Under the pieces are notes generated by a model that was not told where the DNA came from, ran no database searches, and saw nothing but the letters and a program-made list of their open reading frames with translations. Both the position numbers and the translations under genes were made by a program. Below, piece after piece: positions 3,345 to 39,163 of a stretch of DNA of 64,000 bases. Position 1 is the stretch's first letter, and every line of letters starts with the position of its first letter. Origin of the DNA: an uncultured Poribacteria bacterium (GTDB taxonomy: Bacteria > Poribacteria > WGA-4E > WGA-3G); assembly GCA_951813565.1 (NCBI GenBank), contig OX638351.1:3968001-4032000 (forward strand), written 5' to 3'.

Positions 3345-3598
3345 GCCTAACGTTAAGTCATATTTAATTTAGACGTGAAAAAGAGAAATCAAACGTCGCA
3401 ATCATGTTTTCTGATGATGGAGGTTTTATCAATGTGTAACCAATATTGAATAACCAAATTGTAAACACCACAATCCAGAAAGCGAAATCGTCTAAGCACT
3501 TGTCATCTATCCAAGTGCAATGCTTGTGGCATCATGTTAACTATCAGTTAATCCCCCCCCAGTTAAAATACGCTAATTTTTTCATATTACAAGGTCTT

Positions 3599-5394: not shown

Positions 5395-5456
5395 TATTTA
5401 TGAAGAAATTCTGACGGCACCTCCTGGTTTCTGTCGGTAATACGATAAGGAGAATA

Positions 5457-20990: not shown

Positions 20991-21983
20991 CTAAGCGCGA
21001 ACCAGAAAAGGTTTATATGCCGCGTCTTCACCCGTTATCACACGTGCCAAATGCCTAACCTGAAGTTCAATGGAACGAAGGTAAGTCGTTTTTTCATTGC
21101 GGGTTGGGTGCTGAAATGTTTGTTGCATCCGTCCATAATACCCTGTAAGGAATCGGTCTAATGCTTTCTTCGTAAAGCGAATGCCTTTGTTGGTCCGCTC
21201 AAAATCTGCTGGTTTTATGCGGTTATTATTAACGAGTGTAAGGACATAACCATCCACAATAATTTGGCGGAATTCCTCCATCAGATCCGAGGCTAATGCG
21301 GCATGCCCATGCTTGGGTTGGTGAAAATAACCACAGTAGGGATCGAATCCAACGACATTGATAAATGTGTATACGTGATTATGTAGAAGTGTATAACCGA
21401 GTGAAAGCATGGCGTTAATTGGGTCTGGCGGTGGACGAAATTGGCGGGTTGTAAAGCCCCAATCGTGTGCCAGAAATTGCCGGAATGCGCGATAATGCGC
21501 AGCAGCACCAACGCCTTCGTATCCAAGAAGTGATTCCAAATTATCAGCTCGTTCAAGCTTCTCTAAGGTCTGGCGTGCTGAATGAATTGCCGAATTTACA
21601 TCTGCATTTTTGGTGCGCTGCCGTTGAGCGAACCGGATAGCGTTCATGAGTTTACCACGGACGAAACATTTCGCTAATGCAAGGCACCGCAGCGGATTCT
21701 CAGCAACAGCGTACTGCTGCTTGCGAATAAGAGTATCTTTGGCATAAGGTGGTTGTAATTTGCCTTTGTATTTGCCCTGTGTAGAAAGGAAAGAGACCGG
21801 GATATTTTTATGGAGCAAGTATCCCATCGTTTGCGTTGTGATATGTCCGTTGCCGAAAATGACAACTTCGTCAAGTTGAGCAATTGGGATTTCCTGTAGA
21901 ATTTCTCGATCTTTTTTTACGACGATCTGGTTTCCAGATTTATGGAGAACTGCTCCTTGTTGGGTGATGTAGAGAATTGCCAT
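20991..21983 (-). CDS. cas1: CRISPR-associated endonuclease Cas1
   Basis: Motifs LYITQQGAVL, GYEG..AA.Y, R.FRPP.DPINAMLSLGY, G.DPY.G.FH, LASDLMEEFR; ATG at 21983 with AGGAGG RBS. Confidence 0.96.
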   Translation of the reverse strand: MAILYITQQGAVLHKSGNQIVVKKDREILQEIPIAQLDEVVIFGNGHITTQTMGYLLHKNIPVSFLSTQGKYKGKLQPPYAKDTLIRKQQYAVAENPLRCLALAKCFVRGKLMNAIRFAQRQRTKNADVNSAIHSARQTLEKLERADNLESLLGYEGVGAAAHYRAFRQFLAHDWGFTTRQFRPPPDPINAMLSLGYTLLHNHVYTFINVVGFDPYCGYFHQPKHGHAALASDLMEEFRQIIVDGYVLTLVNNNRIKPADFERTNKGIRFTKKALDRFLTGYYGRMQQTFQHPTRNEKTTYLRSIELQVRHLARVITGEDAAYKPFLVRA

Positions 21984-22279
21984 CTTGTCCCTCCTATGTG
22001 AGTTTATGGTTTTGCCCAGTTTATTTATAACGTGAGTTTGATAAATCCCGTAGGGAATCAACACCGAATGCGCCTACGGCATTCGGTAGGGTAGAACGGA
22101 AATGGGCAATAAAAAACAGCCTCTAAAGAGAGGTTGTTGACCCATTTGAGGTCTACATTTCTGAAAAAATAAGTGAAACCCAACTCTTTAGAACTCTCAA
22201 GACGGTTGAATTGTTGGGTTTCGCTTCGCTCTACCCAACGGACTATATTCAATTTAATTATCAAACTCACGTTAATTAT

Positions 22280-22649
22280 ACTATAGTTTGGACAATTTAC
22301 ATATTGTTCGAGGACTTGCTGAGAAACTGTTAGGTGTCCAAAGCAAAATATTGGACACCTGTCGCCCCGCTGGGGCTTTAGACAGCGGCAATTACCTTCT
22401 TCTATATACCTGTCGCCCCGCTGGGGCTAAGGTGTCATCTTATATTATTTATATTTTCTGCGATTTTGCTGGCTGAAAGAACTCGTCCAAAAATACCTTT
22501 TGGGCAGCCCCAGCGGGGCGACAGGTGTATAGAAACGCGGTAAACAACCCGCTTCAGCCCCAGCGGGGCGACAGGTGTCCAATATGAAAACTATATGTTT
22601 TTCTCTAACCCAACCTCACGAAAACAGCTAAAATTGTCCAAAGTATAGT
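22280..22649. repeat. MITE/REPIN-like element with terminal inverted repeats and four internal REP units
   Basis: TIR ACTATAGTTTGGACAATTT / AAATTGTCCAAAGTATAGT; ACCTGTCGCCCCGCTGGGGCT twice forward and twice inverted. Confidence 0.75.
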
Positions 22650-22663
22650 AATTATAGGTTTTA

Positions 22664-24061
22664 CTATAATCCGTTATTTTGTTTTTTTAGTCGGTTACCG
22701 AGTTGTGCGGCGATGTTCTTTCCGCGTTGGGTTACGTGTTGTCCGGAACGTGTGACATGAACTACCCCCTGCTTCAACGTATGTTGCACTCTGTTTTGCA
22801 GAGTTTTTGTTCGGGGTGAGGGGAGCGGTTGATAACAACCATCTTTGTCAAAAACGTGTCCAAGAAATTCAATTCCGTTGTCAAAGTGTGCGATTTTCGT
22901 CTTTTTAGGGTTCAGTTGTAGATTAAGTGTTGCAAGCCGTTTTTGCGCACAATTCAGTGCTTGTCGCGCGCGCCCTTCACTTCGGCACAGCATCAGCGAG
23001 TCATCTGCGTATCGTACCATCCGTATACCAGCCCGTGTCACTGCTTTGTCAAATGCATGCAAGTAAAGGTTCGCTAACAGTGGCGAGAGTGGTGAACCTT
23101 GGATAATTCCGATTTTGCGAGGTTGGTTCAGTCGTTCTTTCACAATACCTACGACAGTAGGTGCAGCGAACGCTGCTAAAGCGAGAGGGGCAATCACAAT
23201 TAAGTTTTTAGTGGCAAGCAGCGATCCTATCCTTTTTGAGTTGGCAAGTAATAGGAGTAGTCCGTCACGACCTAAGTTAACAAGGAATTGATTAAAAGTA
23301 TATTCGCGGAGTTGACTCTGTTGGATACCAAATTCGGTGTCGTGGTCCAACCAATCGTCTGTCATTGAGGCATCACTAATCTGCCGATAGGTGTCGAGAT
23401 GGGATGAACGCTGCAGCAGCTGGTTAATCACTTGTTCAATTCCTTGTCCGATGGAGGAAGCCGTATTTTCAATGTGAGCTACCCATCTGGTGCATTTCGG
23501 AGGCTCCACAATCCCGCCCATATCAAGCCACATCTGAATGAGTCTAAGGATAGGTGTTTCTTTAATTGTAGCTCGGAGAAAACGCATCAGAATACGGTTA
23601 TCCATCGTGCCAAAGAAATTCTGGATATCCGCATCAACCACCCATTCGTACCCCTCGGCGCGGATAGCGTTTACCTGAGCAACTGCTTGTGGTACGCCTC
23701 GATTTGGACGATAACCGAAACTACAATCCAAGAATTTTGCCTCGTAAATCGGCGTGATGAGATCACAAACAGCACGTTGAACGATGCGATCTTTGAGTGC
23801 CAAAACAGAGATTTCGCGTGCGCTGCCGTTCGCTTTTTTCATCGTGAACTTTTGAACTGGCAGCGGATAGTAGCGTTCCTCGGCAAGTTCACGTGCAAGT
23901 TGCCGGAGATGCTTCACAAGGTTCACTTCAAACTGTTGGATGGTAATACCATCACTACCAGGACCGCCTTTATTCGCGCGGACTTTTCGCCACGCTGCTG
24001 CTAACGTTTCAGTTTGACATAGCTGCGTTGTGAGAGACGTTGTAGGGACATAGTTAAACAA
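22664..24061 (-). CDS. CRISPR-associated group II intron-type reverse transcriptase (stand-alone)
   Basis: Motifs AWRKVRANKG.PG.DG, DRIVQ, SFGYRP, DADI..FF, QGSPLSPLLANLYL, RYADD; lies between the array leader and cas1; no intron flanks recognised. Confidence 0.92.
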   Translation of the reverse strand: MFNYVPTTSLTTQLCQTETLAAAWRKVRANKGGPGSDGITIQQFEVNLVKHLRQLARELAEERYYPLPVQKFTMKKANGSAREISVLALKDRIVQRAVCDLITPIYEAKFLDCSFGYRPNRGVPQAVAQVNAIRAEGYEWVVDADIQNFFGTMDNRILMRFLRATIKETPILRLIQMWLDMGGIVEPPKCTRWVAHIENTASSIGQGIEQVINQLLQRSSHLDTYRQISDASMTDDWLDHDTEFGIQQSQLREYTFNQFLVNLGRDGLLLLLANSKRIGSLLATKNLIVIAPLALAAFAAPTVVGIVKERLNQPRKIGIIQGSPLSPLLANLYLHAFDKAVTRAGIRMVRYADDSLMLCRSEGRARQALNCAQKRLATLNLQLNPKKTKIAHFDNGIEFLGHVFDKDGCYQPLPSPRTKTLQNRVQHTLKQGVVHVTRSGQHVTQRGKNIAAQLGNRLKKQNNGL

Positions 24062-24476
24062 TTAGAATCCTCCTTTTTTAATGGAACATACCATCTAACG
24101 TGTCTATTAGAAATAAGAGATGGGTTTGGAGTAAAGTGAAAAAGTTACGAGATTTTGACCTAACAAAATATAGAGGCATTACGAAGAAAAAGGATAGTAA
24201 TATTTAAAAATTTTGACATTTAGACAAATTTAGGGTATACTTTAATAAATACAAACGCGATTGAACGATTGATTGCTGATGGTGATTAAATTGTCCATGA
24301 ACACATAAGGCACCTTGCTTTTGGGTGTTTTTTGCGGGAAAATCGTGTTTGGTTCAGTGTTCATGCGGGTTTAGAGGGTTTTGGACGGAATTTGGGTATT
24401 AAAAAAATCCCAAAAATCTTCGCGTTTGGTTTTGGCTAATTTAGCCCGCACTGTGACAGGGTTTGGAAGGGGTGCG
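24062..24476 (+). promoter_or_regulatory. CRISPR leader with sigma70 promoter (TTGACA 24213-24218, TATACT 24236-24241)
   Basis: AT-rich non-coding region before the first perfect repeat; 17-nt promoter spacing. Confidence 0.8.
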
Positions 24477-27400
24477 GTTCGGAAAGCCTTTCCCGTTTGA
24501 AGGGAATTGAAACGCGGGCTTTAGCCGCCTTGACTAGGTTGTCATTGGGTTCGGAAAGCCTTTCCCGTTTGAAGGGAATTGAAACCAACCTTACCAAACC
24601 CGATTCTTAGGATTTGGCCTTCGTTCGGAAAGCCTTTCCCGTTTGAAGGGAATTGAAACTCATTGGTGGTTGTGACACCAAAGCCAACCTTCAACACGTT
24701 CGGAAAGCCTTTCCCGTTTGAAGGGAATTGAAACACAAACTCTTTTTTTTGGCTCTTACTCCTCCTCCCCGGTTCGGAAAGCCTTTCCCGTTTGAAGGGA
24801 ATTGAAACTACCCATACAGCCTAGAGTCGAAATCTGGAATAGGGCCGAGTTCGGAAAGCCTTTCCCGTTTGAAGGGAATTGAAACTGACTTACAGTCACG
24901 ATGTACGAATTTTCCTTGGGGAAAGTTCGGAAAGCCTTTCCCGTTTGAAGGGAATTGAAACCTCTTTTAATGCCTAAATGACTACAGCCATTCTTCTACC
25001 GTTCGGAAAGCCTTTCCCGTTTGAAGGGAATTGAAACACCTTAATGCACTTGACTTCGAAATTTTCTGCCCATGTTCGGAAAGCCTTTCCCGTTTGAAGG
25101 GAATTGAAACCTCTGGCTCTGGCTCAATCGGTGCATCATCTACCGTTCGGAAAGCCTTTCCCGTTTGAAGGGAATTGAAACTCATAGACCCCGATTGCTG
25201 GGAACAAGTGAGCGATCGCGTGTTCGGAAAGCCTTTCCCGTTTGAAGGGAATTGAAACAAATTTTGTCAGTGGTGGCCTTTTCGTCTCTCAAAAAAGTTC
25301 GGAAAGCCTTTCCCGTTTGAAGGGAATTGAAACTATCTGGAGCTCAATGCTCCGTAAGTCGTTTCCGGGTTCAGTTCGGAAAGCCTTTCCCGTTTGAAGG
25401 GAATTGAAACTCCTTTGATGTTCGGTGTTTGAAAAAACAATCTCCGTTCGGAAAGCCTTTCCCGTTTGAAGGGAATTGAAACATATACTCTTTTGAGCCA
25501 AGCCCTTCGTTTGGATTGTATAGTTCGGAAAGCCTTTCCCGTTTGAAGGGAATTGAAACCTTTCCTCTGTATCTTGTAATAACTCATTTCTGCGTTCGGA
25601 AAGCCTTTCCCGTTTGAAGGGAATTGAAACTTCGCGATACTGTCCGCTAAATCCAACATCACAATCAGTTCGGAAAGCCTTTCCCGTTTGAAGGGAATTG
25701 AAACATGATATTGAATTTCACTTCGGTCAATTTGCGACGAGTTCGGAAAGCCTTTCCCGTTTGAAGGGAATTGAAACGAAACCAGTTACGGAGCCATGCT
25801 ACCCCTAAAACTTGTTCGGAAAGCCTTTCCCGTTTGAAGGGAATTGAAACCCATTCTGCGGTCTCTACAATTTTAAATTTTATTTCGTTCGGAAAGCCTT
25901 TCCCGTTTGAAGGGAATTGAAACGCTTGCATACCCGGCGGTACCAAAGTTGTTGAATTGCGTTCGGAAAGCCTTTCCCGTTTGAAGGGAATTGAAACGGT
26001 TCACCGACAATAGCTATGGTGGTGCCATCAAACAGTTCGGAAAGCCTTTCCCGTTTGAAGGGAATTGAAACATGGTGGTGCCATCAAACAATTCTGCTGA
26101 GGCAGCTACGTTCGGAAAGCCTTTCCCGTTTGAAGGGAATTGAAACCAACGACCCTTACCGCTTTCACGGTGCCGTCTTTTTGTTCGGAAAGCCTTTCCC
26201 GTTTGAAGGGAATTGAAACATCACGACTGTAGTTCGATATTGCGTCGTCTACGTTCGTTCGGAAAGCCTTTCCCGTTTGAAGGGAATTGAAACGAGAAGA
26301 AACTATGGAAACGACTATTAGAGAAACGGTTCGGAAAGCCTTTCCCGTTTGAAGGGAATTGAAACGCAAATCATAATGAACACTATCATCAGGCCGGCAC
26401 ACAAAGTTCGGAAAGCCTTTCCCGTTTGAAGGGAATTGAAACACCTCCGTGATTTCGTGACCGACGATTACTCCATTTTTAGTTCGGAAAGCCTTTCCCG
26501 TTTGAAGGGAATTGAAACCTATAGTAACTGGTAAGGAGGCTGAGCCATTCAGCAGAAGTTCGGAAAGCCTTTCCCGTTTGAAGGGAATTGAAACTTTTCT
26601 CAGCCGTCTTTCCCAGCGCCGCTTGTTGTACGTTCGGAAAGCCTTTCCCGTTTGAAGGGAATTGAAACCGTTAAGATCAAGAGCGTAATTGTCGTTCTAA
26701 GTTTCAAGTTCGGAAAGCCTTTCCCGTTTGAAGGGAATTGAAACACTATTAAGTATCGGGGTGGGTGTGCGATTGTCTTAACTGTTCGGAAAGCCTTTCC
26801 CGTTTGAAGGGAATTGAAACACGATGGCGTCGTTAGAAGTGACTTCGTCCCCAAAACGTTCGGAAAGCCTTTCCCGTTTGAAGGGAATTGAAACTATTTG
26901 CCGACAGCTTTGCTAATACCTTCTTAGCTGACCTCGTTCGGAAAGCCTTTCCCGTTTGAAGGGAATTGAAACATTTCGTTAAGCACAGCCAAAATCAGTT
27001 CTCCTTTGGTTCGGAAAGCCTTTCCCGTTTGAAGGGAATTGAAACACACTACCATCCTAGAGCTGCCAGAGGTGTTCTCTGACTGGTTCGGAAAGCCTTT
27101 CCCGTTTGAAGGGAATTGAAACAAGAAACAATAAATTCGTATGCTGTCTTTCCCAGGCGTCGTTCGGAAAGCCTTTCCCGTTTGAAGGGAATTGAAACAA
27201 GCGTAAGTATCCATCTCTTCTCCTTATTATGTGCGTTCGGAAAGCCTTTCCCGTTTGAAGGGAATTGAAACACTTTTTCTGTCTTACCAACATTATATTT
27301 TCCTCCTGAGTTCGGAAAGCCTTTCCCGTTTGAAGGGAATTGAAACAAATCATTCTTGACACGATCACTAAGAGAGTTCTCGTTCGGAAAGCCTTTCCCG

Positions 27401-28457
27401 TTTGAAGGGAATTGAAACAATGACTGCAAGATAAGAGCAAATAACGCATTAACTCGTTCGGAAAGCCTTTCCCGTTTGAAGGGAATTGAAACGGGTTTTA
27501 TTAAACAATCACACCAACTATAGAAATCGTTCGGAAAGCCTTTCCCGTTTGAAGGGAATTGAAACCTACTCTTCATACTGGCCCAAGCCCAACACCGCTA
27601 GGATTGGTTCGGAAAGCCTTTCCCGTTTGAAGGGAATTGAAACGAATCAAAGAACCCGTCTCGGAACTCCGTCATTGGCGTTCGGAAAGCCTTTCCCGTT
27701 TGAAGGGAATTGAAACACGATAAATCGTATCGGGGTGGGTGTGTTGCGATTGTTCGGAAAGCCTTTCCCGTTTGAAGGGAATTGAAACAAAATCCAGAGC
27801 CGCAAAAAAAATGATAGTTGCCATGTTCGGAAAGCCTTTCCCGTTTGAAGGGAATTGAAACATTTGTAGTGACAACCTTCCCAAAACCAATCTTCAACAG
27901 TTCGGAAAGCCTTTCCCGTTTGAAGGGAATTGAAACAGAAACAAAAAAGAAGTCAGTAAAGTTGGATAAACAATGTTCGGAAAGCCTTTCCCGTTTGAAG
28001 GGAATTGAAACAGAAAATTCCCGGTGGCTACGGTTGCCTCTGCCCCAACGTGTTCGGAAAGCCTTTCCCGTTTGAAGGGAATTGAAACTCATGCGGCGGT
28101 CATACCGCCCGCACCGCCACCTTTGATCGTTCGGAAAGCCTTTCCCGTTTGAAGGGAATTGAAACAGCCATGTTTTCAGTGGCTAGCGAGGACAGAGTTT
28201 CGTTCGGAAAGCCTTTCCCGTTTGAAGGGAATTGAAACATGTGGCGGCCTTCACCATGACGTCATTTGTAGTGGTTCGGAAAGCCTTTCCCGTTTGAAGG
28301 GAATTGAAACCTACGACCATAGCGGTTGAACAACGCCATAATAAGTTCGGAAAGCCTTTCCCGTTTGAAGGGAATAGAAACTTGTAATCTCATCATCAAC
28401 ATATCTGTTTCAGTGACTTTGTTCGGAAAGCCTTTCCCGTTTGAAGGGAATTGATAA
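24477..28457 (+). CRISPR. CRISPR array of 54 repeats (37 nt, GTTCGGAAAGCCTTTCCCGTTTGAAGGGAATTGAAAC) and 53 spacers of ~34-41 nt
   Basis: Counted directly; the last two repeats are degenerate (..AATAGAAAC, ..AATTGATAA); the ATTGAAAC 3' handle and leader position give plus-strand orientation. Confidence 0.99.
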
Positions 28458-28504
28458 ATTATCTCAAATTCAGGTTGTAAAACTTAGAAAGGAGGAAAGA
28501 GTTG

Positions 28505-29455
28505 ATGAAAATTGTTCTTGCTGGTCCCCCTCAATCTGGTAAAAGTTGCTTACGTGAGGGATTGAAGCAGGCTATTCTTGGACTCCAGCGTAACAATTCG
28601 GATATACCATATCCTTATGTAATCACAGCGTGTCCGGATGGTGAAGGAGCATGGTTTCAAGAAACCACGAAAAAATATCCCGAGGTTGCTAAAGCCTGCA
28701 AGGAAGCCTATAAAGGCAAATTCACGCCAAAATTTGTTAAGCTTGTTGCTAAGCATGTACGTAAATGTAAGCAAACCTTGACTATGGTGGACATCGGTGG
28801 ACTTATTAGTAAGGAAAATAAAAAGATATGCAAAGGAGCAACGCATATCGTAATTCTGGCTGGCAACGATTCGGAAAGCGGCGAATGTTGGGATGTCCGG
28901 ATAGCGGAATGGAGAGGATTCGCGAAAGCGTTGGATTTGACTGTGGTGGCAGAGATATTTTCTGATTACCACAGCAAAGCAGATGTTGTTGAAAACGTTG
29001 GCTCGGATAACATCCTCCGCGGAAGTGTTCATTATCTTAAAAGAGGAGTAGACATTGTGGATCGTCCAATGGTTCAGGCATTGGCTCGGCATATTCTTAC
29101 TATAGCGGGGTATCCGCTTACGGGCGAACCTTCTGCGGAATCATCGACCTACATCATTACCCGTGATAAAAACGGTATTTTGCGGGTTGGCTTCGGCACA
29201 CCAGGTGATAACACTCAAATTGTGAAGGATGCCGCTGTGCGTTTGGACGCTATGGAAGAAGCAGGCGAGTTAAGCGGTGGTGATTTACTCAAAATCAATG
29301 GTCCCGCATCATTGCCGGTCGCTATGTTCCTGGGGCATAGGTTGTCTGACCTGTTTGAGGTGATTGCATGCTTTGATCCGAGGATGGATCAGTACGTCAT
29401 CGCAATCAGTCGTAGTTCCGACTCTAAATATGCTGTTGGAAATGTAATTGATTAG
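28505..29455 (+). CDS. csx3: P-loop NTPase fused to a Csx3/Crn3-family ring nuclease domain
   Basis: N-terminal GPPQSGKS Walker A, ACPDGEG.W and VDIGG; C-terminal LRVGFG..N.QIVKDA, KINGPASLPVA..LGH, FDPR..YVIAIS. Confidence 0.82.
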   Translation: MKIVLAGPPQSGKSCLREGLKQAILGLQRNNSDIPYPYVITACPDGEGAWFQETTKKYPEVAKACKEAYKGKFTPKFVKLVAKHVRKCKQTLTMVDIGGLISKENKKICKGATHIVILAGNDSESGECWDVRIAEWRGFAKALDLTVVAEIFSDYHSKADVVENVGSDNILRGSVHYLKRGVDIVDRPMVQALARHILTIAGYPLTGEPSAESSTYIITRDKNGILRVGFGTPGDNTQIVKDAAVRLDAMEEAGELSGGDLLKINGPASLPVAMFLGHRLSDLFEVIACFDPRMDQYVIAISRSSDSKYAVGNVID

Positions 29456-29736: not shown

Positions 29737-30012
29737 TTAAACGACAATTGTCTTAGGTTCCGACGTTACATCCCCGACAGCAGGCACTTCAATGCGTCCG
29801 GCGCAAGCATTACAAAGCGCGTAGTACCGCACTGAATCTTCTGAAGAATCGATAATATCCGCAACAGCATGTTTTAATTCCTCATACTGTTTTCGGTTCA
29901 GATGTGCTTCAAACACGCTGTATTGGACACGAGTACCGAATCCTTTAAGTGCTTTCGCAAGTTGACTCCGCCTTCGGTCATCCGGAATATCGTAAGAGAT
30001 AAGATAGAACAT
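29737..30012 (-). CDS. cas2: CRISPR-associated endoribonuclease Cas2
   Basis: Motifs YLISYDIPDDRRR, G.RVQYSVFE, DSVRYY.LC..C. Confidence 0.96.
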   Translation of the reverse strand: MFYLISYDIPDDRRRSQLAKALKGFGTRVQYSVFEAHLNRKQYEELKHAVADIIDSSEDSVRYYALCNACAGRIEVPAVGDVTSEPKTIVV

Positions 30013-30061
30013 CAAATTTCCCTCCATTGATTATGGCTGAATTAATCAGTTCCCACCATTT

Positions 30062-30450: not shown

Positions 30451-31413
30451 TTAATTTGGTATAATGCGATACTGTCCGTGTCCGAATGCTGTGTGATGCC
30501 CGATGTGTAAATACTCGCCAAGATAGATGAACGGCAGGAACGGTGTCAACTCACCCGTAAAGCGAACCTTCCCGATAAACCCATCCATCGGAATAGAACT
30601 CTCTGCACGATAAGAGTAACGGTTGGACTTGAGCCAGCGGAAACGGGATTCGTGTGTAATAGCACGTGCAGCATCAATCAATGCATGTGCGTCCACATCT
30701 AAATCCTCTCTACAATGAAAATAACTCAAAAAACGGATACGTCTGAGAAGGTTGCGGATAAGATGTTCAAATGTTAACGCGCTTGTCCATCGACCATCAA
30801 CCTTTATACTGGTCGGTGTGAGAAATTCGAGTTCAATTGCATCGCGGTTCTGAGGTGTGCCTTCCAATACATCTGCCAACCCAAGAATAATGCCATCATC
30901 AGCGAGCATCTCAGTTTCTGCGGTGTAAATCGTCTGGCTGTTAGGGCTGCCATGCACTGAGAGGCTTTCGATCTTGTCAAGAAGACACTGCCCGCGCTTG
31001 TCTCGTATACCGATGCGCCGTTTACCTATCTCACGGAAGGTAAACGCTATCCACGGCAACAGGTTGATCGCCTCTCCAATGAGTGTCATACTGCAGACGA
31101 AGGTGTCGTCTGGTGCAAAGTCTGTTTTCTCGGTGTGCGGCGGTTGTAGGATGAACGGATGCGGCGCATAGGGCTGTCCGCGTAGGATGGGACTGTCGGG
31201 TGGAACTGGTGTTTCAAAGCATTTGGAATAGATACACCGATTTGGATGTTGACACTTTTGTTCACACGTTTGCGTTTCTCCGATGCATGCGATGTGGCGG
31301 AGCAGGTATCCGAATCGACTGCGGAAGATGTTGCCTTTGTAGCGTGACATCTTCAGTGGTTCTTGGGCGGTATAGGTGAAGCGGTAGCGGGCAAAGCGGA
31401 AGTTTTTGAGCAT
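30451..31413 (-). CDS. cas6: CRISPR pre-crRNA processing endoribonuclease Cas6
   Basis: Motifs PHPF, FLTPT, and C-terminal G-rich loop GEYLHIGHHTAFGHGQY. Confidence 0.92.
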   Translation of the reverse strand: MLKNFRFARYRFTYTAQEPLKMSRYKGNIFRSRFGYLLRHIACIGETQTCEQKCQHPNRCIYSKCFETPVPPDSPILRGQPYAPHPFILQPPHTEKTDFAPDDTFVCSMTLIGEAINLLPWIAFTFREIGKRRIGIRDKRGQCLLDKIESLSVHGSPNSQTIYTAETEMLADDGIILGLADVLEGTPQNRDAIELEFLTPTSIKVDGRWTSALTFEHLIRNLLRRIRFLSYFHCREDLDVDAHALIDAARAITHESRFRWLKSNRYSYRAESSIPMDGFIGKVRFTGELTPFLPFIYLGEYLHIGHHTAFGHGQYRIIPN

Positions 31414-32864
31414 TATGGAAGTGGCGCGATGAATTGATGTTGTTTGTTAAAGTCGTCAGCATCAATACATGCAATCTTTTGTGCCTTCTTGAATTGTTCT
31501 TCAACAGTTGTTTTAAAGGCTTTGAATTCTTTGCTACTGATCATACGCATACCATGTGCGTAGATACTTTGATTCCTCGTTCCCACTTGATTTTGAAACT
31601 TTCCCCAGTCCAAGCCTTGAACAATTTTATCGTCGAGAGCGTGTAATAAAAGGTATCCGTCAACCAATCCAATGGAGGCAGGAAGAGCAGATCTATCTGT
31701 GCGTTGGAAAACTTCCTTCAATTTAGCCGCATACAGATTGAAAATTTCACCCTCATCAATATTAGAATAATTCGGTTTACGAGTATCAATATTGTACCCT
31801 GCAAGACGGTGTTGTTCGATCCACTCAAGAAGCCGATAGAGAATCAGGCAGGCGGTGTTGAGTTTTCCTTGTGCTTCTCGACGGAGTGCATTGTGATAGA
31901 GCATAAACGCAAAGTGAAACCCATTAGGAGCATTGAGTGCCAGTTTTTCATTTTTGAGAAACATCAGTAAAGCTTCCAGTGCTTTTATGTGTTTTTCAAT
32001 GCAAACTTTACAATCTCGGAGTGGATTTAATCCATCTAACATATTATATTGATCAAGAATCTTTACCAACCGTTCTAAGAAAGTTTTTGCTTTGCCAACA
32101 TCAAGATTATCCCAAGCCTCGTATGCTGTGCATAGGTATTCATAAGCCTCGTAGGTTTTGGCTTTGTTGGCATCTCCTACTAATGATTTCAGTAGCTGAA
32201 ATATTCGCAGTGCCCCTGCGTAATCATGCCTTTCGTATAGGTCTCTTGCTTTCTCAACCTCTAAATCACCAAATACGGTATAAGGATTATCCAAAAGATT
32301 TAGATACTCACTACACGGTTCAGGTTTTCCATGCGTAAATTTGGTATTATCAACGTAAAATATAGCAGCACCGAGTACTGCACCCGCCATTGCTGCACCA
32401 CCAACCATTGACTTTTTCCCGCCTGTGATATCCACAGCAATATTCGTAGGACGTTTCCACTTTTCATAGAGTTCCATGATTGCTTTGTAAACATCCACAG
32501 CACTACTTCCGTCAATTTCGAGTGTATCAAGTTGGTCAAGCGTTAATTTTGTTTCATCTTGGATTCGTGGCAGTAATCTTTCTGTTTCCTTCGTGTAAAG
32601 CAAACCAACCCGTTCCGGTTTTATGGCGAGGATAGAAAGAATCAACGGTTCAGGGGAATATCCAAGGGGTAAGATGAGTCCTTCGTATTCCTTGTCTTGG
32701 CTATTATCTGGGTTATCGACAAATGCTTTTTTGACAAACGGGAAAATGTGTTCATCATAGAAAACAGATGCTGCTGCTTTCTCTTCGTGACTGTTATAGT
32801 CCATTTTCTTCCATTCCTCAACGAGTGCATCAAATTCTTCTTGAGTAAATATCTCTTTTGGCAT
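31413..32864 (-). CDS. CARF-HEPN cOA-activated ribonuclease effector (Csm6/Csx1-like, TIGR02710-type)
   Basis: LG.SPEP and VDITGGKKSM (CARF); YRLLEW..Q.RL; RNQSIYAHG (HEPN R-x-H). Confidence 0.85.
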   Translation of the reverse strand: MPKEIFTQEEFDALVEEWKKMDYNSHEEKAAASVFYDEHIFPFVKKAFVDNPDNSQDKEYEGLILPLGYSPEPLILSILAIKPERVGLLYTKETERLLPRIQDETKLTLDQLDTLEIDGSSAVDVYKAIMELYEKWKRPTNIAVDITGGKKSMVGGAAMAGAVLGAAIFYVDNTKFTHGKPEPCSEYLNLLDNPYTVFGDLEVEKARDLYERHDYAGALRIFQLLKSLVGDANKAKTYEAYEYLCTAYEAWDNLDVGKAKTFLERLVKILDQYNMLDGLNPLRDCKVCIEKHIKALEALLMFLKNEKLALNAPNGFHFAFMLYHNALRREAQGKLNTACLILYRLLEWIEQHRLAGYNIDTRKPNYSNIDEGEIFNLYAAKLKEVFQRTDRSALPASIGLVDGYLLLHALDDKIVQGLDWGKFQNQVGTRNQSIYAHGMRMISSKEFKAFKTTVEEQFKKAQKIACIDADDFNKQHQFIAPLP

Positions 32865-32889
32865 GTTATTTTCTCCTTTTTTACAGGTA

Positions 32890-33519
32890 TTATGCAGGAA
32901 CCACCTCTTTAATATTGCCATTGTCATCCACCGAAGTCACCTTTACATTTACTTCATCACCGACATTTTTTAGAAAATATCCAGTTTTAAAAACGATTTC
33001 TTGTTTATCGTCAGTTTGTAATTCCACGGTCACCTTACCGACCTGTTTTTTCAATACCTTTGCCTTGAGTTTAGTGCCTTGAATATACTTCGGTTTGGGT
33101 TTTTCTTCTGGCAGTGGAAGGGGTATAAACTTCGGTTTCTCTTCCAGTGGTTCTTGTTTCTGTTCTTGCGGACGTTGCTCCTCAGTTGCGCGTTTGGGTT
33201 CAACACGATAGTAACGCATCAACCGCAGACTCCAACCCAGTATAAGTAAAAGTTCAGTTGTGTCTTCTATGTCATGGAGATGTTCTTCAAAGCTTTCTTG
33301 TATGTTCCGATAGAATCGCTGTGTCTGATGGCTTCGGATTAGTGCGTTACGGGTGCTTGACAAGCGTTGAACCAACGATGTCAATCTATCTTTTATATCA
33401 CTCTCTGCCTTGTTCTGCCGCACAAAAGCAATGACTTTCCCCAACTCATTCGGGTCAGTGCCTCTGTCAACTAATTCAAAAGCAATGTCATGAGCACTAG
33501 ACCACTGTTTTTCTTCCAT
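32890..33519 (-). CDS. Uncharacterised CRISPR-associated protein (helical N-domain, Pro/Glu/Lys linker, S1/OB-like C-terminus)
   Basis: Within the cas operon; GGAGG RBS. Confidence 0.6.
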   Translation of the reverse strand: MEEKQWSSAHDIAFELVDRGTDPNELGKVIAFVRQNKAESDIKDRLTSLVQRLSSTRNALIRSHQTQRFYRNIQESFEEHLHDIEDTTELLLILGWSLRLMRYYRVEPKRATEEQRPQEQKQEPLEEKPKFIPLPLPEEKPKPKYIQGTKLKAKVLKKQVGKVTVELQTDDKQEIVFKTGYFLKNVGDEVNVKVTSVDDNGNIKEVVPA

Positions 33520-33531
33520 TAGATGCCTCCG

Positions 33532-34521
33532 TTAGTATAACCCAGTAGGGCAGTTGCGGTCATTTGGATACTTGAGGATCTGTGCAAGTTGGGACAATAA
33601 TTCCTGCTGGATGAGTCTACCAGTTTCGGCATCGTTCACACACGTCTGCATCCACGTTTCCAATTCTTCATTTGTCCTTGAAGTATCTTGAGGAACATCC
33701 CAATTCAAGTAGCGGGAACCAGTATGTTGTTGAACTTGTATCTCATCAATCTGGAAATCAATTGACCCGAAACAGACAGGTTTCGCTCCACCGATTTTGA
33801 GTTTAAACGAATGTTCTGGATGATGTCCTAACGCTGTAAAGAGTAGTCCCCACTCGGACTGTTTAAGGTTGTCCACTTGCATAACGAAGCGGAATTGTGT
33901 TTCTTTTTCACACGCTTCAACGGGTGTGCTGCCAGTAGCCACTTCACCGTGCATGTAAAACTTACGTCCCGGTACCTCCCGCATACTTCTTTGTCCTCGT
34001 CCTGGCGCATAGAGTTCAGGGACATGTTTTGTAACGATGTCTCCTTCTATTCTGGGAGCATCTTGTATAGAAATGTTTCCTTGAAACCCCATTGCACCAA
34101 ACATTCTGCAGGCTACGCACAAGTTTTCTTTCTGTCGACATTCAGAAAACCATCTCGGCATTGCGCGACGGACTTGGGTCGAAACTTTACTGAGACAGCT
34201 TTCAGAGATTGCTTCAACAACACTTCGGATTGCTCCTTTGAGTGAACTTCCGGGAATTACGATGTTGCCGCCAGTTTTCACTGCTGTTTTAATGAGTTCT
34301 ACATCATCACCGATGTCTATAATGCCACTGCCGATATATATTGGCGTGAGTGCTTTAATAGTGCCGTGAATCCTACCTGTTGTGCGGTTATGTTGGTAAC
34401 GGTCATGTCTGGTAGGTCTATCTCTCTTGACACTACTCGGTAACTGTACAAAAGCAAAAGGTTTTGGTGCTGCTTGTTCTTCTTGTCTGCCGCCAGAGCC
34501 ACCGCGTTGGTATTGTCCCAT
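33532..34521 (-). CDS. cas7: Cas7-group RAMP subunit
   Basis: PKPF.FV, LTPIYIGSG, IPGSSLKGAIRS..EAIS.SC, GRKFY.H, IGGAKP..FG. Confidence 0.88.
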   Translation of the reverse strand: MGQYQRGGSGGRQEEQAAPKPFAFVQLPSSVKRDRPTRHDRYQHNRTTGRIHGTIKALTPIYIGSGIIDIGDDVELIKTAVKTGGNIVIPGSSLKGAIRSVVEAISESCLSKVSTQVRRAMPRWFSECRQKENLCVACRMFGAMGFQGNISIQDAPRIEGDIVTKHVPELYAPGRGQRSMREVPGRKFYMHGEVATGSTPVEACEKETQFRFVMQVDNLKQSEWGLLFTALGHHPEHSFKLKIGGAKPVCFGSIDFQIDEIQVQQHTGSRYLNWDVPQDTSRTNEELETWMQTCVNDAETGRLIQQELLSQLAQILKYPNDRNCPTGLY

Positions 34522-34525
34522 AATT

Positions 34526-35020
34526 TTAGTCTCCTGATTTCTGCACAAATTTGGTGTATCGTGTGAAATGGATAGTCTGAGACTTACGTTCTTTGTATTG
34601 GATTACCTTGACACATGGATATTTACACCAATCCATTGGATAATCAAGTTTTCGGGGTATACGTGTGTCTCGCCACGGTTTTGTTTCACCACCACCGAGT
34701 AGATATATGTTTTGGGGATGAGTTGTCTCCCATTTGCCTTGTTCAGTAAAACCTTCCGGTAAGGTGTCTTCAGATAACCAAAGCAAAGTGTAACCGGTGT
34801 TGGTCTTTTGCCATCGGAGTTCGGCTTGACTCCCAAATAACCTGCCGCGTGAGAACTTCTCAATCTTGGCAGTGTCTGGTGTGCCTTTTTTCCAATTGGT
34901 GATTTTATTGGGTCTTTGAAGTAAGTAGTATTTAGTCTCACCAAATTGTAGACATTTTAATAGGTCATTGAGTGCTGACACATCAGTCACCTGTCTTGTA
35001 GCGACGATTGCTTTTCCCAT
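34526..35020 (-). CDS. csx19: Csx19-family type III-D subunit
   Basis: GRLF...AELRW motif, C-terminal FTRY; typical III-D position. Confidence 0.7.
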   Translation of the reverse strand: MGKAIVATRQVTDVSALNDLLKCLQFGETKYYLLQRPNKITNWKKGTPDTAKIEKFSRGRLFGSQAELRWQKTNTGYTLLWLSEDTLPEGFTEQGKWETTHPQNIYLLGGGETKPWRDTRIPRKLDYPMDWCKYPCVKVIQYKERKSQTIHFTRYTKFVQKSGD

Positions 35021-35021
35021 G

Positions 35022-35951
35022 TTACTGATCCTCTTCAAAGATGTTTCGCCATGAATTGACACATCCACGCCATAATGCTGAGATGTCACCCTCGTCTTCA
35101 AATGTCAACGTTGCACCGAGCCCGTAGGCATCTGGTTGTGCTTCGACTCCCTCCACTTCAACGGTATCGGACTCTGGAAATCCATAGGCATCTGCATCGT
35201 TGACAAGTTTTCCAGCACCTGCAACGACGTTCTTGTTGAATGGATCAACAGGATTTCCCAGCATACGCACCTGTTCGTTTCCTACAATGGCGGTTGGGTA
35301 GTGGATTTCAACTTTATTGACTTTCATGTTCACCTGTCCTAAACCGCGCGATTTTGCGAAACCGATGCCGATACGTTGTTCGTCAAAATCACGGATTGCC
35401 AGTGCGATGAGTGCGAGTTGTGAAGTTGTGAAGTTTTTTAAGTTTATTGTCGTCGTGAATGTTCCGGCAGTCAACACCTGAAAGTTGAATAAAGCACCGG
35501 GGACAGCAGAACCAAAGATGCGATCAATTGCGACGCCGTTTCGCTCCTCTAACTTTATTTCTGATGGGTCAACAGGATAGGCATCAGTAATATTTGCCCG
35601 TGCGGAGATGTTTGTGCTACCGAAGATTTGACATATCGTGCATGTCCTTCTGTAGAGAGTAGCACTGTTTTCCTCCTCCAGATTTCTACATGGTGAGTTT
35701 CGCTTTACAGGATCACATGCTGAAACATTTCCACCAAGAGTCCGGACAATTCGTTCACAATGTGCGCGTATTGCACCTTTCAGAGAGGAACCGGGTAGAT
35801 AAACGCTTCTATCGCCACCATAGTACGTCTCCACGAACTCCATGTCAGGCTTTGTTGGGTCTGCCCCTTGGTCGCTTGCTTTGATAAGCAGGGGTCCGAC
35901 AGGAGAGATTGTTATTTTGATTTTCGCTTGATTAACCATCCGTTTGTGCAT
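35022..35951 (-). CDS. cas7: Cas7-group RAMP (Csm3-like)
   Basis: YLPGSSLKGAIRAH.ERI, C..C.IFG, RNGVAIDR..G, G.AKSRGLG. Confidence 0.9.
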   Translation of the reverse strand: MHKRMVNQAKIKITISPVGPLLIKASDQGADPTKPDMEFVETYYGGDRSVYLPGSSLKGAIRAHCERIVRTLGGNVSACDPVKRNSPCRNLEEENSATLYRRTCTICQIFGSTNISARANITDAYPVDPSEIKLEERNGVAIDRIFGSAVPGALFNFQVLTAGTFTTTINLKNFTTSQLALIALAIRDFDEQRIGIGFAKSRGLGQVNMKVNKVEIHYPTAIVGNEQVRMLGNPVDPFNKNVVAGAGKLVNDADAYGFPESDTVEVEGVEAQPDAYGLGATLTFEDEGDISALWRGCVNSWRNIFEEDQ

Positions 35952-36762
35952 CTGTTCCCTCCAATTGCTTATCTATTCTGTCTTTAAATGCCTCTATCCA
36001 CGATTCCCAGTTTGCATCGTCGCCTTTATCGTCTTTGGTAAGATAATCCATAATTTTTGTCTTGTCAATGTAGTGTGCGGAGTCCAGCGTTAGTGTGATA
36101 ACACCGAGTCCACGACTACTTGCGCCGCCGATAGTCAAATCGCCTTTCTCAAAAGCAGATAATCCCAAGTATAGCATACCGAGTTGCCAATCGGTTGCGT
36201 TGTCAACGATTGCATGGAAATCGAATGGTGTGCCTGCGGGAACAACCTCAAAATCGTAGAGGTGACCACTGACGGCGGTTTCAGTATCACGGTCAATTGC
36301 GACACCGTCCCTTTGTTGATACTGACCAAACCATAGGTCTTCTTGCACGTATAGGTCGCGGACCTGAAGCTTTGAGGCATACCATAAGGAACCGAAGAGT
36401 TTGCACACCCAGCATGTTTTGCTAAGCAGTTTCGCATTATACTTTTGTTCGTTCCAATTGTTATCGTCACGATCATCCTGGAGTTTTTTCATCTCATCTC
36501 TTGTGATACACTGTTCATCATTGTTCGTCGGGTTGCAGACGACTTTTTTATTCTTAGCGAAACTTCGGAGGATGCTTTCTACATAAGACCTTAACACTCC
36601 TTTGAAGCTTGAGCCGGGGATATAGGGAGCACCTTCAGCATCTCGCACAACAGGCAGGTCTGAACCGATAACCGCAGTTGAACGTCCCGCACCGACACGG
36701 ATTGCTGTCTGTGTTTCTACCGTGCCTTTCAGATTGAGTCGGGATTGGAATTTGTGAAACAT
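35932..36762 (-). CDS. cas7: Cas7-group RAMP (Csm3/Csx7-like)
   Basis: PYIPGSSFKGVLRS..E, C.VC.LFGS, RDGVAIDRDT, GG.SSRGLG. Confidence 0.92.
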   Translation of the reverse strand: MFHKFQSRLNLKGTVETQTAIRVGAGRSTAVIGSDLPVVRDAEGAPYIPGSSFKGVLRSYVESILRSFAKNKKVVCNPTNNDEQCITRDEMKKLQDDRDDNNWNEQKYNAKLLSKTCWVCKLFGSLWYASKLQVRDLYVQEDLWFGQYQQRDGVAIDRDTETAVSGHLYDFEVVPAGTPFDFHAIVDNATDWQLGMLYLGLSAFEKGDLTIGGASSRGLGVITLTLDSAHYIDKTKIMDYLTKDDKGDDANWESWIEAFKDRIDKQLEGTDAQTDG

Positions 36763-37226
36763 TAGTTGTTACCCCCTTCTTTCGCCAAATAGACCTGATA
36801 GCGAGCAAGGTTACCTAAGTAAAGCTGCATGAGTCTGAGATGGACTTTCTGAATCTGATCTTTGTTCGGTGGATTATTTGAATCAATAGATTTGACGATA
36901 TTCTCAGCATCAGTGGATAATTCCTCAATCTTTTCTACTAATGCGGTAGCGAAAGTTGTATCTCCATCAGCAGTATCTTGCCACATCCGATTTGCACCTC
37001 TCCGACCGAGTTGATAACGGATGTAGTTTTTGGTGACTTCAATGCCACTTCCTGGGTCTGTTGCGACGTTCAGCACATTGCGGAATGGCGAACGTTCATT
37101 GCTGAGATTATAACTATCCGCTAATTCTTGCATCTTTGGAATGATTTCTTCCATCTGTAAACTGATTGCGCGTTCTATTTTTAGATTGGTTTGTCTTTCA
37201 TCGGTGTTTTTATCTGTTTGGTTCAT
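36762..37226 (-). CDS. cas11: Type III small subunit (Cas11/Csm2-like)
   Basis: Helical 154-aa protein with NYIRYQLGR and W motif, between csx10 and cas7. Confidence 0.7.
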   Translation of the reverse strand: MNQTDKNTDERQTNLKIERAISLQMEEIIPKMQELADSYNLSNERSPFRNVLNVATDPGSGIEVTKNYIRYQLGRRGANRMWQDTADGDTTFATALVEKIEELSTDAENIVKSIDSNNPPNKDQIQKVHLRLMQLYLGNLARYQVYLAKEGGNN

Positions 37227-39163
37227 TCTGTGTTCTCCTTATTGTTGTTCAGTGTGTCTCGTGTGTGAAGGTGAAATGGGTCGCAGATTGTTATCTGTCC
37301 GAATCCTTCTTCACGTCGGTTGCCGATGCCTGTGTTTTCAAGGTTTTGTAATGCGGGTAGCCATGCGTCAATATTCGTTGTGTGAAATACAAAGACACTG
37401 CCGATATTGGTTATGAGTTCCGTTTCTTTAGGCAATCCCCATGCAGCGTTCCAACCGCCTGCATATCCATAACTGGCGAAACTACGGACGCATGCTACTT
37501 CAGTATTACAGGCTACTTCAGTATTACAGGCAGCTATGTCCTGCAACATCCTCTCGGTGAGAACCATACTCCGTTGCCATCCATTTTCTGCTGTTAGAAT
37601 GGCTTCTGATTGTAAGTTGACGGTAAAGTAGCTGCCATCACATTCACCAATACTGGTATTTGATAGACACTTATATGCCTGCCATACTTCTGATAATGCT
37701 TCGTTGAAGTTTTTAATCCGTTCGCTGAGGGGTTCAGAGGACGATTTTTTTCCCACTGCGATGCTGACGTGTCCAAGTCCACGTGAACTTCCGCCACCCA
37801 ATCGCATTACCTTATGCTCTAAGGTCTGTGCGACTTTATCTACGAGTCCGGGTGGCACTCGGACGGAACCGTGTAAAACCACCGGTTTGCTTTCTTTCTC
37901 ATTCTGTGACTCTGCTTTTCCATCTTTCACGATGACAGGATCAATCGCAGTTAGATGATACAGTAGACCTTCCTCAGCGACTTTTCGCTGCCTGTTGATT
38001 GCCACGCGCGTGAGGAGTCGGGTGTTGAGGTGTCTCTCTTTGTGAGAACCGGTTGCATCTTCATAGAATCCACTATGTGATTCCACTCGTCCGCAACACT
38101 CGGGACAATTCGGTTGATACATCCAATCTGCTTTTTCAGAGACGATTCTCTCCATAAGTGTGTCAAAAACACCGTGCTTCCCATCGGCAATAAATCCTGG
38201 TGTATCCTTACAACTTATGGCGGTTGCTGGCAAGACATTTGCGGCGGGTGTGCAGTTTCGGAAGATAGCGGCATCATTCTCAATGAAAATTGTTTTGAAA
38301 TCTGCATCTGGTGTGCTATTCTCTAATTCTGCCAATAGTTCATTTGCAACAGCACCGCGTATCAAGCCACCGCGGATGTAATTGAGTGCTTCTACGGCTT
38401 GTCCGGAAGGTTTGCGTCCCCCCGTGATAATTGGAGATTGTAGTGTAACCTGCAGCGATAGTTCTGTGAAATCATCATTGGTATTTAGCGATTCAGTTTC
38501 AGGCGATTGTGTTTTGGTTTCAGATGGTTGCGGTTCGTGTGTGATGGTTATCCATCCGAGTCCGCGGGTTTTACCTGAGCCGATGGCATGGACGTATTTC
38601 AGTCCTGCAGTGAGGAATTCAATCTGTTTGCCTGTGATGTTGTTGCTCAGTAAGACATCTCCAGAGAATTTAAAGCCTGCGTTTGGGATGCTTGTTTCTG
38701 TGAAATAGAGACGTTGATCTTCTGCGACTCTGCGATTGCGATTGATGGTTACACCGCTCCGGATTGCTGTTGTTTCTATCTCCAAATTTGTATCATGTAT
38801 GAGATCACTGATAAATATTTTTGATTCCGATTTAGGTGAACCGAAAATCTGACAAATGATGCAGTGGTTATCCTGCATTGCTTTAGTATTTTCGTTTACA
38901 AGTTCTTTCTTTGGACGCGGACACATATTCTCGGCTCGCGGACTGTTGCAAACAAAGTGTTTCTTCTCACCTCTGGCAATTGCTTCGCATGCGTGTCGCC
39001 AGATACCTTTAAGTGTTGAAGCAGGGATATAAAGTTTGCCGTCGGTGGTTTTAACGGTTGCCTTATCAGTACCTGTATCGCTGGAGCCGCTATCACCGAT
39101 ACAGAGTGCGGAATCAATTGTGGCTGTGATTTTCCAATGTTTGTTAGTTGTTTGTTTAATCAA
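37223..39163 (-). CDS. csx10: Cas7-Csx10 (Cas5-group) RAMP fusion
   Basis: N-terminal Cas7 (IPASTLKG, C.IC.IFGSP, IGSGKTRGLG), then Csx10 (YIRGGLIRGA, RLGGGSSRGLG, GIGNRREEGFG); start approximate (TTG). Confidence 0.85.
   Translation of the reverse strand: MIKQTTNKHWKITATIDSALCIGDSGSSDTGTDKATVKTTDGKLYIPASTLKGIWRHACEAIARGEKKHFVCNSPRAENMCPRPKKELVNENTKAMQDNHCIICQIFGSPKSESKIFISDLIHDTNLEIETTAIRSGVTINRNRRVAEDQRLYFTETSIPNAGFKFSGDVLLSNNITGKQIEFLTAGLKYVHAIGSGKTRGLGWITITHEPQPSETKTQSPETESLNTNDDFTELSLQVTLQSPIITGGRKPSGQAVEALNYIRGGLIRGAVANELLAELENSTPDADFKTIFIENDAAIFRNCTPAANVLPATAISCKDTPGFIADGKHGVFDTLMERIVSEKADWMYQPNCPECCGRVESHSGFYEDATGSHKERHLNTRLLTRVAINRQRKVAEEGLLYHLTAIDPVIVKDGKAESQNEKESKPVVLHGSVRVPPGLVDKVAQTLEHKVMRLGGGSSRGLGHVSIAVGKKSSSEPLSERIKNFNEALSEVWQAYKCLSNTSIGECDGSYFTVNLQSEAILTAENGWQRSMVLTERMLQDIAACNTEVACNTEVACVRSFASYGYAGGWNAAWGLPKETELITNIGSVFVFHTTNIDAWLPALQNLENTGIGNRREEGFGQITICDPFHLHTRDTLNNNKENTE

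Follow-up and report, generated by a model that had tools for sequence, protein, structure and literature searches.

Recurrent antisense spacers against a foreign Csx3-family gene in a type III-D CRISPR locus of Poribacteria

A type III-D locus with a recurrent spacer target

We analyzed a CRISPR array and its neighboring genes in a 64,000-nt stretch of the genome of an uncultured Poribacteria bacterium (GenBank assembly GCA_951813565.1, contig OX638351.1, positions 3,968,001 to 4,032,000; hereafter the window), and found that its spacers repeatedly address one small, foreign gene of the Csx3/Crn3 family of ring nucleases, a focus that recurs in a second strain. The spacers are 34 to 41 nt long, and because the leader lies at the left and the two rightmost repeats are degenerate, S1 is taken as the newest (Table 1). 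Judged from its gene content (Cas10, Csx10, Csx19, several Cas7 proteins, and a reverse transcriptase, or RT, beside cas1, an arrangement described in PMC5513706), the locus is of type III-D with RT-associated adaptation genes and belongs to a Poribacteria-like host, whose Csx3 has its nearest named homologue in Candidatus Poribacteria (81%). Where sequencing runs with readable labels contain part of the array, they are sponge metagenomes; the parts are small and the indication is weak. A Cas10 with its GGDD motif and a CARF-HEPN effector mark the host as one that signals through cyclic oligoadenylate, with cyclic tetra-adenylate (cA4) as the probable messenger, going by the family of the effector.

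Table 1. The CRISPR array, its Csx3-related spacers, and the adjoining genes, in window coordinates.
Feature	Coordinates	Strand	Remarks
CRISPR array	24477..28457	+	54 repeats (37 nt), 53 spacers; + strand corresponds to CRISPR RNA; S1 newest
AT-rich leader region	24062..24476	+	Between RT gene and first repeat; assigned from sequence; same leader in second strain L047
S1	24514..24548	+	Antisense to Csx3 helix 1; p=0.0007; 10/11 aa to P0328; 1/27 nt from T6
S2	24586..24622	+	Antisense to Csx3 GFG segment; p=0.0003; 11/12 aa to P0328
S3	24660..24697	+	GFG segment; relative to S46, T6, and P0328, allele is shorter by one codon
S6	24886..24924	+	Antisense to DPK region; Phe at conserved Asp position; p=0.0003
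S10	25182..25221	+	Antisense to second His/Asp region; p=0.0003
S15	25560..25593	+	Antisense to start of a Csx3 allele; p=0.0007
S28	26519..26557	+	Antisense to NG-x-ASLP loop; differs from T10 at one base (Pro/Ser)
S31	26745..26783	+	S44-related; perhaps against the Csx3 C terminus, uncertain; p=0.015
S32	26821..26857	+	Further GFG-segment allele; p=0.004
S37	27199..27234	+	Antisense to what resembles a Csx3 start (ribosome-binding site plus start codon); possible, by eye, not significant
S44	27717..27751	+	Possible Csx3 C-terminal spacer; not significant
S46	27862..27899	+	GFG-segment allele; 10-nt overlap with S51; p=0.0017; 11/12 aa to P0328
S51	28239..28273	+	Helix-1 allele joining S46; p=0.002
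Cas1	20991..22064	-	
Reverse transcriptase	22664..24061	-	YADD intact; adjoins cas1
Host AAA-Csx3 fusion	28502..29455	+	Not the target; PADLOC Csx3-AAA, E=5e-76
Cas2	29737..30027	-	
Cas6	30451..31413	-	
Csx1-type CARF-HEPN effector (TIGR02710)	31413..32927	-	Activation by cA4 presumed from family
Type III-D interference genes	32890..41690	-	Csx21, Cas7s, Csx19, Csm2-like, Csx10, Cas10 with intact GGDD

Spacers directed against Csx3 in two strains

Stand-alone Csx3 proteins supplied a profile on which each spacer was scored, with p values taken relative to 3,000 shuffles and a cut-off of p<0.01. Twelve of the 53 spacers in the window array passed, ten of which (S1, S2, S3, S6, S10, S15, S28, S32, S46, and S51, numbered by array position) are antisense to and in register with Csx3 and together reach from its start codon to its C-terminal strand; the two sense-strand matches, S9 and S36, we treat as chance. 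A preliminary description of this array had proposed that one gene was sampled over the whole life of the array, and the ten positions do begin at the newest spacer and end close to the oldest. The second strain (L047, LXNJ01012377.1; spacers numbered T1 onward) carries the same RT and leader and has no spacer in common with the window array. There, nine of 22 spacers are Csx3-like, all antisense and all among the 12 newest of an array that is cut by the contig end. Taken together, the two strains direct 19 of 75 spacers at one gene of about 315 nt, and of the 21 matches at p<0.01, 19 have the antisense orientation, so the guides are able to act on the mRNA.

Arrays of the same repeat family in other Poribacteria gave 0 of 144, 3 of 186, and 8 of 1,333 matching spacers in three sets that may overlap one another (11 of 1,663 in all, below the 1% expected), and relative to these the enrichment has a Fisher p of about 1e-10 for the window array and 3e-13 for L047. 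Counted by genome, Csx3 matches occurred in 0 of 39 other members of the genus and in 5 of 111 of the family. With control arrays at chance level, the hotspot is specific to this species among those examined. An IscB-linked array type, from which only two spacers were parsed, was not used as a control, and a search of 176 Poribacteria genomes with the array itself as DNA query gave repeat matches among the best 150 of 293. In another array of the same genome, outside the window (G000 near 1198127-1201290), one of 47 spacers (spacer 26) reached p=0.002 on the Csx3 profile.

The remaining spacers gave nothing beyond chance against the open reading frames of csx3-bearing loci and an AAA profile. 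S31 and S44 have a 16-nt core in common, with a 3-nt indel, and are possibly two alleles of one target, perhaps the Csx3 C terminus. In L047, the antisense frame of T1 (1963-2001) contains what we take to be an HExxH motif, and that of T22 (3538-3574) is presumably ankyrin-like; no exact match to T1 was found in IMG/VR.

The target is foreign to the host

The array adjoins a host gene of the same family, the AAA-csx3 fusion, whose Csx3 domain is 52% identical to P0328, a natural member of the target family (see below). Spacers that silence this gene would amount to self-regulation, and the proximity and homology are what speak for it. Every Csx3 spacer, however, has at least 11 mismatches to host csx3 (range, 11 to 28), the host genome holds a single csx3 copy, and no near-full spacer match was found anywhere in that complete genome. 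The mismatch counts effectively refute self-targeting, to which we give almost no credence: the target is a foreign gene, not host csx3. Codon usage agrees with a foreign origin. Across 223 informative codons in the 19 spacers, the G+C content at third codon positions (GC3) is 0.55 versus 0.39 in the host, and the spacer codon score of -0.097 lies below all 1,000 host samples, with only 0.07% of 3,047 host genes as low and the host's own cas genes at 0.02 to 0.08.

In the host Csx3 domain itself (29147-29452), two of the three His residues conserved in the family are replaced by Asp and Arg, and the same two are lost in its closest homologue, P0001. The domain may therefore be a noncatalytic sensor fused to the AAA domain, in which case the host would be without a working Csx3 off-switch.

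A natural member of the target family

When the tiled spacer translations were made into a profile, the protein P0328 stood out among 1,014 candidates (E of 8e-14, versus 1.7e-3 for the next). It is a stand-alone protein of 104 amino acids whose gene lies on a contig of 3,750 nt in the metagenome assembly that also contains L047. It agrees with T6 at 15 of 16 residues, and for nearly all spacers it is a better fit than the host protein. Searches for homologues that started from the host protein or from a mixed alignment gave generic Csx3s. P0328 belongs to the Csx3 family by PADLOC models (E of 4e-20 to 2.5e-6) and by PF09620 (precomputed), and its AlphaFold2 model (mean predicted local distance difference test score, 94.4) has the STAS-like Csx3 fold, with Archaeoglobus fulgidus Csx3 (AfCsx3, 6YUD) as the best Foldseek match (E of 5.6e-5); there were 13 matches at E<=0.001, and the 11 listed were all AfCsx3, with TM scores of about 0.6. 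P0328 has His66, His70, Asp79, Lys81, and His91, residues that recur in 90% or more of the 26 alignment rows.

The residues matching these matter in A. fulgidus Csx3 (PMC7371418). P0328 shares with that Crn3/Csx3 enzyme (6YUD, 3WZI) the fold, the profile family, the conserved His and Asp, a basic residue, and the C-terminal His. The two are only about 22% identical, and relative to the catalytic set H57/H60/D69/R71/H80, P0328 spaces the first two His one residue further apart (H-x3-H versus H-x2-H) and has Lys in place of Arg71. A further difference is that A. fulgidus Csx3 is a cas accessory gene, whereas here the Csx3 gene is the target of CRISPR spacers. Going by these residues, P0328 is predicted to be a ring nuclease that cleaves cA4; the reaction expected of a Csx3/Crn3 member depends on Mn and takes place between head-to-tail dimers.

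In run X8 (sponge DNA), one 785-nt contig can be aligned to T6 over its full 49 nt with 6 differences, which shows that a related allele is present as DNA; contigs of runs X1 to X3 gave no match to T6.

With csx3 known from sponge Entotheonella and from several Poribacteria, and with spacers from co-occurring prokaryotes documented (PMC12612501), the array could in principle have integrated RNA or DNA from the cas-linked csx3 of other symbionts in the sponge, without any defensive role. We consider such bystander sampling quite unlikely, since it leaves unexplained the share of spacers drawn from one 315-nt gene, the antisense bias, and the lack of matches to neighboring cas or AAA genes, and since P0328 fits the spacers far better than any Poribacteria Csx3.

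Many old alleles of one gene

Overlapping spacers had been joined in the preliminary description into alleles of the target gene. S3 and S1 overlap by 7 nt and S46 and S51 by 10 nt, both exactly and in frame. Four spacer pairs overlap by at least 7 nt (7, 7, 10, and 19 nt), compared with 0.28 in shuffled arrays, in which overlaps of at least 10 nt are expected 0.007 times. The S46/S51 join is sound and well beyond chance. The 7-nt join of S3 and S1 counts only because each spacer maps independently to adjacent Csx3 positions; S13 and S34 likewise share a 7-mer and are unrelated to Csx3. Furthermore, T6 is identical to S1 at 26 of 27 nt and differs from S3 in its upstream sequence, and P0328 matches both S2 (11 of 12 residues) and S1 (10 of 11) within one chain. 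As both place S2-like sequence before the S1 segment, the S3+S1 join is ambiguous, and S1 may belong to an S2/T6-like allele rather than to the S3 allele. The 19-nt overlap, between S21 and S22 (25998-26109), points to a second target common to both.

The (G)FG segment was correctly read as occurring in four differing nucleotide versions, in S2, S3, S32, and S46; these versions are mutually incompatible. Adding T5 and T6 brings the count to at least six versions in place of a single target allele, with the P0328 protein differing from all of them, and the idea that a diversified family of one small, Csx3/Crn3-like gene was sampled is borne out. The four window alleles differ pairwise at 27 to 48% of shared bases, many of the differences being synonymous, and S3 lacks one codon in frame. 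Most allele pairs differ at 20 to 48% of bases, and T10 and T7 are separated by eight synonymous and two nonsynonymous changes in 12 codons. Near-identical pairs are limited to S1/T6 (1 of 27 nt) and S28/T10 (1 of 30 nt), both between strains. Such large and largely synonymous differences indicate standing diversity rather than single-step escape mutants; on this pattern the target family is old and under protein constraint, and both strains meet the same lineages.

These distances also bear on whether one element escaped repeatedly by point mutation, so that the array would hold its successive variants. The two one-base pairs fit such a series, as does the fact that old spacers (S46 and S51) and new ones (S1 to S3) carry different alleles, but successive alleles are not a few bases apart, the T10/T7 changes are mostly silent, an in-frame indel is involved, and the one-base pairs fall between strains and not along one array. 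The allele fragments already suggest deep clades present side by side in one sample, which would speak against such a series. We give this explanation a slim chance, and the term "escape variants" used earlier is not supported. The "arms race" proposed with it is plausible, temporal turnover being inseparable here from repeated sampling of standing diversity. The diversity reads as old and spread over several elements or paralogues, "elements" being a conjecture.

One allele class departs at a key position. Because S6 encodes Phe at the conserved Asp, and Asp-less homologues occur naturally (P0203, P0213, P0229, L110, and L120), this class may be inactive or form half of a mixed oligomer.

Candidate carriers and placement of P0328

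P0328 had no target-family member in IMG/VR or GTDB, and exact spacer or motif scans of IMG/VR gave no match. INPHARED yielded weak partial matches only, PLSDB only 13 cyanobacterial plasmids (all under 60% identity), the BFVD fold search nothing at E<=0.001, and PHROGs nothing; the metagenome scan returned the second array (L047) and no protospacer. More distant stand-alone csx3 genes do occur on viral contigs. Eleven IMG/VR contigs carry one (L001-L009, L139, L140; two with near-identical flanks), with no cas match or array within 10 kb and at most 46% identity to P0328, and among nine viral csx3 loci, for which selected open reading frames were scanned, some have genes of portal, terminase, endolysin, or DarB-like type. 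The csx3 gene of L003 and that of L079 have as neighbors one gene resembling adenylate kinase and one that is Cys-rich and radical-SAM-like.

Cas-free csx3 is also found in Patescibacteria, the candidate phyla radiation (CPR). Twenty-four of 71 GTDB csx3 loci are titled Patescibacteria, 17 of the 24 with an AAA partner, and none has an array or a cas match (25 reference proteins; flanks of at most 6 kb, often shorter); all four of the genomes tested, which may be incomplete, lack a Cas10 palm domain. A TrmB regulator lies next door in 10 Patescibacteria-type loci and housekeeping genes in others, and orphan Csx3, often with AAA and a divergent TrmB, was seen in L062, L072, L079, L086, L090-L098, L105, and L110-L130. 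Three Patescibacteria loci hold two csx3 paralogues, the second being without His in L072, L079, and L086. CPR csx3 genes carry strong ribosome-binding sites, Shine-Dalgarno strength not separating carrier types, and no hammerhead ribozyme reached the gathering score in 15 loci. In L131, titled Micavibrio, an epibiotic predator, AAA and Csx3 (5228-6297) occur with no cas match, one flank being short.

In a Csx3 tree of 52 rows chosen from 96, with several long-branched rows left out and an alignment of 110 columns, host Csx3 falls in a Poribacteria clade (100/96), and P0328 groups (97/91) with orphan Csx3 of three genomes of 0.5 to 0.8 Mb (L062, L065, and L072). The P0328 branch is long (1.03), and approximately unbiased (AU) tests reject neither its placement inside the Poribacteria clade (p 0.287) nor that with most viral rows (p 0.157), so the grouping is a lead only; cas-linked Entotheonella Csx3 is equally similar to P0328 (57 to 58%).

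The coding RNA of CPR-type csx3 is strongly folded, at z of -2.5 to -11.8 in 16 of 16 genes (14 titled CPR, two untitled), compared with z below -2 in one of seven viral and one of nine cas-linked genes, and CPR-type genes are mostly richer in G+C than their flanks. Mean local folding z is -1.02 both for spacer-derived segments and for CPR csx3 genes. The spacer-derived segments fold more than the spacers of relatives (p 0.006); their differences from viral (p 0.078) and cas-linked csx3 (p 0.095) are not significant, the signal coming mainly from L047. Possible helices between spacers were seen in S35 (27046-27085) and T8 (L047 2501-2537), with 16 bp including four G-U pairs, and in S42 (27566-27606) and T19 (L047 3312-3352), with 14 bp; as a set they are at chance level, the 16-bp length of S35/T8 being reached in 12% of shuffles.

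These observations raise another source for the target, an orphan csx3 cassette of a Patescibacteria epibiont whose transcript or DNA enters the host, where the ring nuclease would blunt the cA4 response. The RT-associated III-D system would then record and attack csx3, and the alleles would be parasite strains and tandem paralogues. The tree grouping, the cas-free loci, the paralogue pairs, the folding, and the raised GC3 of the spacer segments fit this origin, and there is a precedent in the type III-E spacers of Candidatus Phosphoribacter that match a Saccharimonadia epibiont (10.64898/2026.09.16.751625). Against it stand the AU result for the Poribacteria clade on a long branch and a short alignment, the equal similarity of Entotheonella Csx3, the nonsignificant folding differences, and the chance-level helices. 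Zero spacers match the AAA partner or other cassette neighbors, the target family was in no GTDB genome, and any Csx3 at all was matched in only 6 of 400 sampled Patescibacteria. Type III interference also requires the target RNA within the cell, and transfer of parasite mRNA is hypothetical. On balance we regard an epibiont source as possible though somewhat unlikely. The fuller proposal, that an epibiont gets a folded, GC-rich csx3 transcript (or gene) into the host as a cell-borne anti-CRISPR answered by about a quarter of host spacers, we hold to be doubtful, with less weight than the source itself.

A putative foreign ring nuclease as a recurrent target

The explanation we prefer, at a probability of roughly 45%, is that a foreign, stand-alone Csx3/Crn3 gene on a mobile element is expressed in the host and that its mRNA is repeatedly targeted by the III-D system. 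The sponge Poribacteria system would repeatedly acquire and keep guides against foreign csx3 mRNA, with P0328 as the type member, and the gene would most likely reside on a phage, a plasmid, or another mobile element from which Csx3 is expressed in the host. The foreign Csx3 would degrade cA4 and silence the Csx1-type effector, thereby acting as an anti-CRISPR, and the guides, by cutting csx3 mRNA, would trigger the alarm ahead of any accumulation of the ring nuclease. If foreign Csx3 does destroy cA4, mRNA-cutting guides would keep Csx1 active and hence be favored. Between roughly a quarter and nearly half of the bases differ from allele to allele, so that a separate spacer is needed for each one; this would account for the many versions. 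For a gene of this size to yield so many spacers, its carrier must be very small, its transcript must be very abundant, or selection must be at work; an early and strongly transcribed gene would be a favored source of type III spacers, so that acquisition bias as well as selection might lie behind the hotspot.

In favor of this explanation count the share of Csx3 spacers in both strains relative to the control arrays, their antisense strand, P0328 as an actual stand-alone protein, the signaling genes of the host, the csx3-bearing viral contigs, the contig of run X8 that matches T6, the preference of type III systems for early phage genes, and the viral ring nucleases known from other families. 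Several results weigh against a mobile-element carrier. No element with the target gene was found in IMG/VR, INPHARED, PLSDB, or GTDB. Target codon usage is a very poor match to the host, something not usually seen in a phage after long adaptation, and P0328 groups with Patescibacteria orphans and not with viral Csx3s. Several of the control Poribacteria possess the same RT-Cas1 module and CARF effectors, and these relatives have no Csx3 spacers beyond chance. Lastly, the other 56 of the 75 spacers were assigned to no target.

Relation to known systems

Ring-nuclease anti-CRISPRs are known in the form of Crn2/AcrIII-1, SAVED/AcrIII-2, phage and plasmid Crn4b, phage Csx16, and Csx20 (PMC12409355, PMC12751052, PMC12830947, PMC13148439), and the accessible text of a survey of 28,114 phage genomes names AcrIII-1, Csx20, and Csx16, not Crn3 (PMC12409355). 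Assignments of this kind can reportedly vary with the test system (10.1101/2023.01.10.523387). The present case resembles these in that a host-type cA4 off-switch is proposed to be in the hands of an invader; it differs in the protein family and in that the evidence consists of host spacers against the gene. In Streptococcus thermophilus, type III acquisition is transcription dependent and draws on early phage genes, and early anti-CRISPR transcripts have been argued to be good targets (PMC13575424). Those hotspots are likewise an RNA-targeting array focused, antisense to mRNA, on a small part of the invader; unlike them, the hotspot here concerns a single 315-nt gene of a counter-defense family, in many alleles, and an RT-associated III-D system.

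Spacers of hosts against episymbionts have been described in the type III-E system of Candidatus Phosphoribacter, directed at the epibiont Candidatus Lutisaccharimonas (10.64898/2026.09.16.751625), and in Altiarchaeum, directed at DPANN archaea (Esser 2023, cited in PMC12612501). If the carrier were a Patescibacteria cell, the present case would be an event of the same kind, with the difference that the targets there are genome-wide or of unknown function and here belong to an alarm-destroying enzyme family. In titles and abstract openings, with few subscription journals covered, we found no report of natural spacers concentrated on a ring-nuclease gene, and nothing relevant in the literature on Patescibacteria, Saccharibacteria, or CPR with a ring nuclease or Csx3. 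The hotspot is real, replicated, and unusual, and is a variant of known themes.

Should the preferred explanation hold, the array would supply natural evidence for a type III system concentrating on the counter-defense gene of an invader. The finding points to an anti-CRISPR role, in phages or in ultrasmall parasitic bacteria, for Csx3/Crn3, a family that until now has been described as an off-switch of the host. Were the carrier a Patescibacteria cell, the finding would bear on how epibionts deal with host immunity, would give orphan Csx3 cassettes a function and a sponge CPR lineage a named host, and would imply transfer of nucleic acid from epibiont into host cytoplasm. With one real 104-residue protein in hand, cA4 cleavage, protection of the invader, and benefit of the guides become directly testable questions.

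Other features of the locus and its relatives

An AAA-Csx3 fusion like that of the host is found in another Poribacteria genome (G102, L055 11396-12427), with no cas match within 6 kb and with RT_UG29-like and MzaA-like genes nearby. In the stand-alone RT of the window, a long insertion separates the two parts that match the profile, and the RT has the same layout beside cas1 in G007, G013, and G002. The gap between cas1 and the RT gene (22357-22578) contains short GC-rich direct and inverted repeats that resemble repetitive extragenic palindromic (REP) elements in appearance.

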